From: Escherichia coli
Lineage (GTDB): Bacteria > Pseudomonadota > Gammaproteobacteria > Enterobacterales > Enterobacteriaceae
Assembly (NCBI RefSeq): GCF_009931435.1
Contig: NZ_CP043414.1
DNA length: 64,000 nt
Reading direction: 5' to 3' (one strand)
Shown here: piece after piece, positions 60,042 to 60,781 of the stretch
Position numbering within the stretch: position 1 is the stretch's first letter
How the letters are laid out: each line of letters opens with the position of its first letter
Notes under the pieces: generated by a model
Database searches by the model: none
Seen by the model: only the letters and a program-made list of their open reading frames with translations
What the model was told of the DNA's origin: nothing
Translations under genes and position numbers: made by a program

Positions 60042-60781
60042 GTAACTGGCCTTATCCCCGCATCGTCGCCCACCGTGGCGGCGGTAAACTGGCCCCGGAA
60101 AACACCCTGGCGGCAATCGACGTTGGGGCAAAATACGGTCATAAGATGATCGAATTTGACGCGAAGTTATCGAAAGATGGTGAGATCTTCCTGCTGCATG
60201 ACGATAATCTCGAACGCACCAGCAACGGCTGGGGCGTCGCGGGCGATCTGAACTGGCAGGATTTACTGCGCGTGGATGCAGGCAGTTGGTACAGCAAAGC
60301 GTTTAAAGGTGAGCCGCTGCCGTTGCTTTCGCAGGTGGCGGAACGCTGCCGTGAACATGGGATGATGGCAAATATTGAAATCAAACCCACCACTGGCACT
60401 GGTCCATTAACGGGCAAAATGGTATCGCTGGCGGCGCGCGAACTGTGGGCTGGTATGACGCCGCCGCTGCTGTCATCGTTTGAGATTGATGCTTTAGACG
60501 CCGCACACCAGGCTGCACCGGAACTGCCGCGCGGTTTGTTGCTGGATGAGTGGCGCGACGACTGGCGCGAACTGACCACGCGGCTGGGCTGCGTCTCTAT
60601 TCATCTCAATCATAAGTTGCTCGATAAAGCGCGAGTGATGCAGTTGAAAGACGCTGGATTACGGATTCTGGTTTATACCGTCAACAAACCCCAGCGCGCG
60701 GCAGAGTTGCTGCGCTGGGGCGTGGATTGCATCTGTACCGATGCGATTGATGTGATTGGCCCGAACTTTACGGCCCAATAG
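60038..60781 (+). CDS. ugpQ: Cytoplasmic glycerophosphodiester phosphodiesterase UgpQ
   Basis: 247-aa [59 protein letters not shown]... (GDPD family). Confidence 0.95.

Follow-up and report, generated by a model that had tools for sequence, protein, structure and literature searches.

In the window, the whole 64,000-nt stretch of DNA analysed here, ugpQ and yhhA converge tail to tail and share the last 14 nt of their coding sequences. The overlap is real, was already known, and belongs to an ordinary and common class. It is probably an ancient, annotated overlap of two genuine genes that persists as a passive by-product, and we infer that the signals ending each transcript are embedded in the partner gene. 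The interest of the overlap itself is low, since both the overlap and the idea that the two transcripts overlap are already in the annotation and the literature. The only new result of this analysis is a hairpin inside ugpQ, referred to as hairpin B, that is constrained at synonymous sites. A second hairpin, hairpin A, lies inside yhhA. The features are listed in Table 1.

Table 1. Coding sequences, shared stretch and hairpins at the ugpQ/yhhA junction (positions in the window)
Feature	Position	Strand	Description	Basis
ugpQ CDS	60038-60781	+	247 aa, ends ...GPNFTAQ, stop TAG at 60779-60781	sequence and ORF list
Hairpin B short U-tract, TTTGTT	60688-60683	-	yhhA-sense side only	
Hairpin B stem, CCCCAGCGC/GCGCTGGGG	60689-60697 with 60712-60720	-	GC-rich, 14-nt loop	fold z = -3.3
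ugpQ/yhhA shared stretch, TTACGGCCCAATAG	60768-60781	both	14 nt	sequence
yhhA CDS	60768-61208	-	146 aa, ends ...IPLKTIGP	sequence and ORF list
Hairpin A, stem GCGGCGTGCTGG/TCAGCATGTCGC	60803-60832	+	fold centroid -22.1 kcal/mol	terminator-like scan
Hairpin A T-rich tail, CGTTTCTTCTCTCT	60833-60846	+	directly after the stem	

UgpQ is a cytoplasmic glycerophosphodiester phosphodiesterase, and ugpQ closes the ugpBAECQ operon. YhhA has a signal-peptide-like N-terminus, is rich in glutamine, and carries DUF2756. The two coding sequences lie on opposite strands with their 3' ends facing and have at least 1 nt in common, as convergent overlapping pairs do. The yhhA stop codon, TAA, occupies 60768-60770 and appears as 'tta' on the plus strand; the ugpQ stop lies 11 nt within yhhA (60779 - 60768 = 11). 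On the ugpQ strand, the shared stretch consists of the final two bases of TTT followed by ACG GCC CAA TAG. On the yhhA strand, it reads ACT (partial) ATT GGG CCG TAA. Codon positions 1/2/3 of ugpQ are thereby set against positions 1/3/2 of yhhA. The initial annotation had described a 14-nt convergent overlap of ugpQ and yhhA, and the sequence and the ORF list bear it out with the names, coordinates and stops all correct. Both stop codons were confirmed in the sequence, and the identical overlap is annotated in K-12 MG1655 and in the nearest genome. An earlier stop or an alternative start that would remove the overlap does not come into question: ugpQ has no earlier in-frame stop, and both stops are set by the reading frame.

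Both ugpQ and yhhA are genuine protein-coding genes. UgpQ matches the Pfam GDPD model (1.3e-55) over residues 12-238 of 247, and YhhA matches DUF2756 (1.6e-59), with the model ending at residue 105 of 146. Homologues of the two proteins number from hundreds to thousands, and RefSeq annotates both genes. Both Pfam models stop short of the overlap, which would fit an annotation artefact in which one C-terminal extension is not truly protein and no real coding overlap exists. Such an artefact is highly improbable, given that the frames are intact in thousands of genomes, that the stops admit no other placement, and that different genera share the conserved YhhA tail IPLKTIGP. A frameshift or early stop in most related genomes was looked for and not seen.

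In K-12 MG1655, RefSeq places yhhA at 3586943-3587383 (+) and ugpQ at 3587370-3588113 (-) with the 14-nt overlap annotated, and the RefSeq annotation of the nearest genome gives a 14-nt overlap as well. Of 5426 complete E. coli genomes, 5423 contain a 60-mer that spans the junction, and both genes are annotated under the match. Overlaps of this kind are common. Lillo and Krakauer (2007) put the number of convergent CDS overlaps in E. coli at 58 (PMC2174442). The modal form in their survey is a 4-nt overlap with interlocked stops (TTAA, CTAA, CTAG or TTAG), and phase 123:132 is the most frequent (49%) among the longer convergent overlaps of at least 5 nt (PMC2174442). The terminators of convergently overlapping genes necessarily lie within the coding sequence of the partner, and predictions find an intrinsic terminator for no more than about 20% of the E. 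coli genes that overlap convergently (PMC2174442). The ugpQ/yhhA pair belongs to this class, as one of the roughly 58 pairs counted; it has the 123:132 phase, its relatives have the 4-nt form, and nothing essential differs.

The pair has also been catalogued at the transcript level. It appears as yhhA-ugpQ in Table 1 of the ExcludonFinder study (2025), which lists 165 convergent pairs whose transcripts overlap (PMC12288877). The criterion for listing was overlapping RNA-seq coverage in 50% or more of 58 MG1655 transcriptomes; the listed pairs have higher synteny, and overlapping terminators were predicted in 146 of the 165 (PMC12288877). The initial annotation had held that the transcripts must overlap and could interfere. 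The first part is logically sound, because each mRNA has to reach its own stop codon, and the coverage overlap in K-12 is an independent report of it (PMC12288877). For the second part, transcription of ugpQ and yhhA could interfere as a possibility. Five convergent pairs occur in the 41 kb around the locus, with spacings of 2, 199, -14, 49 and 56 nt. One of these pairs is yhhM/yhhL, whose members lie 2 nt apart at about 42143-42146 as judged by collinearity with L086 2144-2147, and it is likewise in the ExcludonFinder list (PMC12288877). Tandem repeats were considered as the origin of the ugpQ/yhhA junction and rejected, as none was relevant.

The history of the junction was followed across Enterobacteriaceae. 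Eighty species-level loci were fetched as yhhA-containing, and the stop-to-stop distance was measured; the 84 junctions considered comprise 81 measured ones plus Klebsiella, Raoultella and Salmonella, which were added separately, and the window is included. The convergent neighbour of yhhA is ugpQ at nearly every locus, and an overlap persists in 72 of the 84 junctions. Nearly half of the junctions (40/84) have the 4-nt overlap with interlocked stops, including those of the Citrobacter freundii group, Salmonella, Franconibacter, Pseudocitrobacter, Trabulsiella, Leclercia, Kluyvera, Phytobacter, Kosakonia and others. The 14-nt form is found in 18/84, namely the window, all Escherichia including E. 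albertii and E. whittamii, Dryocola, several Buttiauxella and Cedecea colo. Overlaps of 17 nt (6/84) and 20 nt (4/84) occur in Enterobacter, Lelliottia and the Citrobacter amalonaticus group, and overlaps of 7, 9, 11 and 23 nt are scattered, with one junction each of the 84. The remaining 12/84 have a gap of 5-96 nt; these include Klebsiella (24 nt), Raoultella (18 nt) and one locus (L074) in which ugpQ is apparently disrupted. Two loci beyond the 84 have apparent overlaps of 98 and 166 nt, which probably stem from damaged yhhA copies, and one further locus (L070) gave no ugpQ match.

The two C-termini behave differently over this range. The YhhA tail IPLKTIGP is kept across genera, also in four loci in which the genes do not overlap (L030, L047, L072 and L079), and the UgpQ residues beyond the GP(D/N)F motif vary freely. 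Given the conservation of the YhhA tail without overlap and the variability of the UgpQ tails, the final UgpQ residues TAQ of the 14-nt form are most readily understood as a passenger of the yhhA tail. In Enterobacter, Lelliottia, Leclercia and Kluyvera, the YhhA tail is lost and the overlap with ugpQ is retained. By these comparisons of sequence, the tail-to-tail contact is old and persistent, and its length labile. At five Buttiauxella and Cedecea loci (L030, L041, L047, L072 and L079), 45-96 nt are inserted between the two stops. The inserts resemble REP-type repeats, for example ...TGTCGGATGACGC... and ...GGGTGGATAAGCGAGCAT..., and L047 retains the UgpQ tail KAQ despite the loss of overlap. 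As to the window itself, 5424 of the 5426 complete E. coli genomes have a match to the interval 60000-61400; identity is mostly 94-96%, typically about 94.5-95.5%, and reaches at least 99% in just 3. The YhhA of the window is closest (99%) to that of 'E. coli SCPM-O-B-8794', a separate species representative in GTDB. The low identity to most E. coli places the source of the window in a divergent or cryptic lineage of Escherichia.

Hairpin A, a candidate intrinsic terminator for the ugp operon, begins 21 nt past the ugpQ stop, within yhhA codons. It would be specific to the ugp transcript, because three of its G.U pairs become A.C on the yhhA-sense RNA. The hairpin is kept in Escherichia, the Citrobacter freundii group and Pseudescherichia, and in one locus (L013) one pair is changed on both sides. 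In the Citrobacter freundii group, it is followed by a better tail, CGTTCTTTTT. Its stability was compared with that after synonymous-codon randomisation of yhhA. Hairpin A beats these controls at all 11 Citrobacter loci (p <= 0.03). The Escherichia loci, with the window among them, give p of 0.05-0.31, which is not significant, and the case for a terminator there is weak. Only 31 of 81 loci have a terminator-like hairpin of any kind in the 160 nt that follow ugpQ. Two AGA Arg codons face the T-tract of hairpin A and were considered as a sign of selection for a U-tract. This was rejected; relatives have Lys (AAA/AAG), and AGA/AGG facing the T-tract is explained because K-to-R transitions suffice.

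Hairpin B begins 47 nt past the yhhA stop, within ugpQ codons Pro218-Gly228, and its ugpQ-sense flank is CGTGGATTGC. In most species the stem is maintained by synonymous codons that are atypical. Pro218 is CCC in 67 of 77 species, whereas CCG is preferred at the majority of the other conserved Pro columns. At Arg226, 68 of 69 have CGC, and no other Arg column of ugpQ is as invariant in its codon. The segment beats synonymous-codon controls at 59 of 81 loci in the yhhA sense and at 41 of 81 in the ugpQ sense. When the whole of ugpQ was scanned for folding in 12 diverse species, the hairpin B window scored 11/12, compared with 7/12 for the runner-up and 0-3 for a typical window; these per-species counts are not independent, as the species are phylogenetically related. 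The core variants that depart from Watson-Crick pairing are G.U 16 times on the yhhA-sense strand and 5 times on the ugpQ-sense strand.

In an alignment of 78 sequences, 90.9% of the cells of the hairpin B stem are paired, versus 27-59% with the partners slid. Covariation was not above that of shuffles (90.9% paired versus 90.5% shuffled), and this test is without power, since the columns of the stem show next to no variation. RNAalifold did not return the hairpin B stem from all 78 sequences; from the 60 core-keeping sequences, or from random subsets of 12, it gave the stem of 9 bp, with energies of -16.5 to -18.7 kcal/mol. RNAalifold bars pairs with more than two counter-example sequences, and the miss with 78 sequences is attributed to this limit. 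Representatives at 50% identity outside Enterobacteriaceae have lost the PQR..LRWG peptide and were uninformative on hairpin B without yhhA; at each Enterobacteriaceae locus fetched, yhhA adjoins ugpQ. A scan of 59500-61800 against Rfam 15 gave a single hit, a snoRNA match at chance level (E = 0.83, 15 bits versus a gathering threshold of 45) that lies away from the region of interest.

From its position and fold, hairpin B is a candidate terminator or 3'-end-protecting hairpin of the yhhA mRNA. Its loop is long, at 14-16 nt. A U-tract follows hairpin B only in species with Lys at residue 217, and hairpin B is therefore probably no canonical intrinsic terminator for the family as a whole. It folds on both strands and so could serve the ugpQ mRNA or something else. 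Its role may differ between lineages, with termination in some and pausing or 3' protection in others, or may lie in the ugpQ mRNA. A more ambitious proposal would make hairpin B a functional element of the yhhA transcript (terminator, Rho or collision positioning, or 3' protector) that is kept by selection on ugpQ codons (Pro218 CCC, Arg226 CGC) in most Enterobacteriaceae; with hairpin A, it would set the overlap of about 160 nt described below and so couple expression of the phosphate-starvation ugp operon to the stress-induced periplasmic protein YhhA. Taken as a whole, we regard this proposal as doubtful.

The ugp operon belongs to the Pho regulon and is little expressed in the media of the Term-seq study considered here. 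In the tables of that study (Adams et al., 2021), no 3' end was present at the convergent ends of ugpQ and yhhA, and a primary 3' end was assigned to ugpB. The same tables hold an ORF-internal 3' end 51 nt into yhhA (K-12 3586994 +, about 61157 in the window) that is not Rho-dependent. Its place in the signal-peptide coding region of K-12 yhhA suggests premature termination or processing of the yhhA mRNA. The TERMITe supplements mention neither ugpQ nor yhhA. With regard to expression, yhhA is inducible by several stresses. In E. coli O157 Sakai entering stationary phase, the log2 change was +2.48 for yhhA and +2.1 to +2.6 for ugpQ/C/E, and these genes fall in one expression cluster on the arrays (PMC2241611). 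Co-induction of both units argues against strict mutual exclusion. Genomic SELEX gave a peak for the RpoS holoenzyme in the ggt/yhhA spacer and a peak for the sigma-28 holoenzyme within K-12 ugpQ, with an intensity of 18.1 (PMC5493296). If there is a promoter inside ugpQ, extra antisense or sense transcription would pass through the junction.

The reading that we prefer, a passive overlap of long standing, can be laid out as follows. The two genes converge without a spacer, and ugpQ takes its last three sense codons and its stop from the antisense of the final yhhA codons. The YhhA tail IPLKTIGP is the conserved partner, and the UgpQ residues TAQ after Phe244 would be dictated by it. With no intergenic DNA available, each transcription unit would have to end within its partner. 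For the ugp operon, the 3' end of the transcript is probably located at hairpin A and its T-tract or beyond them, at about 60840; for yhhA, it is probably at hairpin B or beyond, at about 60683. With these ends, the two RNAs would be complementary over about 160 nt (60683-60840) when both are made. The arrangement would most simply have originated by loss of the spacer and drift of the stop codons, giving a state that is hard to reverse. Antisense cross-talk, through RNase III acting on the duplex or through polymerase collision, would be a modest side-effect and not a dedicated switch.

Selection for contact could instead be the cause of the persistence seen across the family. In its full form, this alternative holds that the junction is a selected excludon, in which the 3' complementarity is kept so that the starvation-induced ugp operon (phosphate or carbon starvation) and the stress-induced yhhA repress each other, by RNase III cleavage of the RNA duplex or by transcriptional interference. 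The membership of the pair in the published E. coli excludome, with its higher synteny and its many overlapping terminators (PMC12288877), speaks for it, as do the validated precedent of mscL-arfA (PMC10070815) and the retention of contact in most junctions although the YhhA C-terminus has been remodelled. We nevertheless consider it unlikely. Both units were co-induced in a single cluster in O157 Sakai (PMC2241611), the overlap length varies between 4 and 23 nt, and about 12 lineages have a gap. Overlaps are intrinsically hard to lose, and persistence is expected without selection. In a search by gene name of the supplements of a p19 dsRNA-capture study, yhhA was absent and ugpQ occurred in one row (PMC7373196). 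Mutual lowering that depends on RNase III is the hallmark of an excludon; ugpQ/yhhA would by this measure be a listed candidate, for which the arrays show co-induction.

Termination by Rho or by collision is a live alternative for both units, and it bears on the part of the preferred reading that concerns end signals. According to this explanation, the sequence encodes no terminators; Rho after ribosome release, head-on collision of RNA polymerases, or both would end the two units, and the hairpins would be elements that position a pause or collision, or protectors of the 3' end. It draws on the low share, about one fifth, of convergently overlapping E. coli genes with a predicted intrinsic terminator (PMC2174442), on the lack of a conserved U-tract at hairpin B, and on collision termination by E. 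coli RNA polymerase in vitro, which requires a stem-loop (10.1101/2022.10.23.513370). The hairpin A of the Citrobacter freundii group, which has a good U-tract and beats its controls, has the look of a classical terminator and does not fit this explanation. On balance, we hold the explanation to be somewhat unlikely, both for the termination itself and for the roles that it gives to the hairpins, and we keep to the passive overlap with end signals in the partner genes.

Three known systems are useful for comparison. With the excludons, the pair shares its listing by name and a short intergenic distance, here negative, that is typical of the set (PMC12288877). The mscL and arfA genes are likewise convergent E. 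coli neighbours with complementary 3' regions (Morra et al., 2023; PMC10070815), and they are also listed in the ExcludonFinder table (PMC12288877). In contrast to ugpQ-yhhA, antisense regulation and RNase III processing have been experimentally demonstrated for mscL-arfA (PMC10070815). The bidirectional terminator and collision systems described in SEnd-seq work and by Wang et al. (2022; 10.1101/2022.10.23.513370) have in common with this locus the presence of stem-loops near the convergent ends and the need to halt both polymerases within a short space. A bidirectional terminator is one hairpin between the genes, flanked by an A-tract and a U-tract, whereas two hairpins occur here, about 80 nt apart and inside the partners. 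Hairpins A and B are each U-flanked on a single strand, unlike a bidirectional intrinsic terminator, and hairpin A is not bidirectional because its G.U pairs fail on the opposite strand. The value of the locus is limited and is that of a worked example of a convergent pair without a spacer, with end signals that would lie in the coding sequence of the partner. With its series of overlaps (4, 14 and 17-23 nt) and secondary gaps over about 80 species, and with the hairpin in ugpQ, the pair offers a convenient test case for whether listed excludons are regulatory or incidental.

Some minor observations concern other parts of the two genes. The stop of ugpC and the start of ugpQ share 4 nt (ATGA, 60038-60041); this is the usual form of a co-directional junction and suggests translational coupling inside the ugp operon. 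YhhA ranges from 96 to 167 aa among the E. coli entries (homologues P0001-P0040), and one Salmonella YhhA entry has an internal duplication of 29 residues. This range and this duplication indicate that the Gln-rich repeats expand and contract. Residues 51-75 or so of ugpQ (about 60188-60262) form a second stretch of low synonymous variability, with an observed/expected ratio of 0.57-0.65, and the minus strand of this stretch folds above controls in 7 of 12 species.
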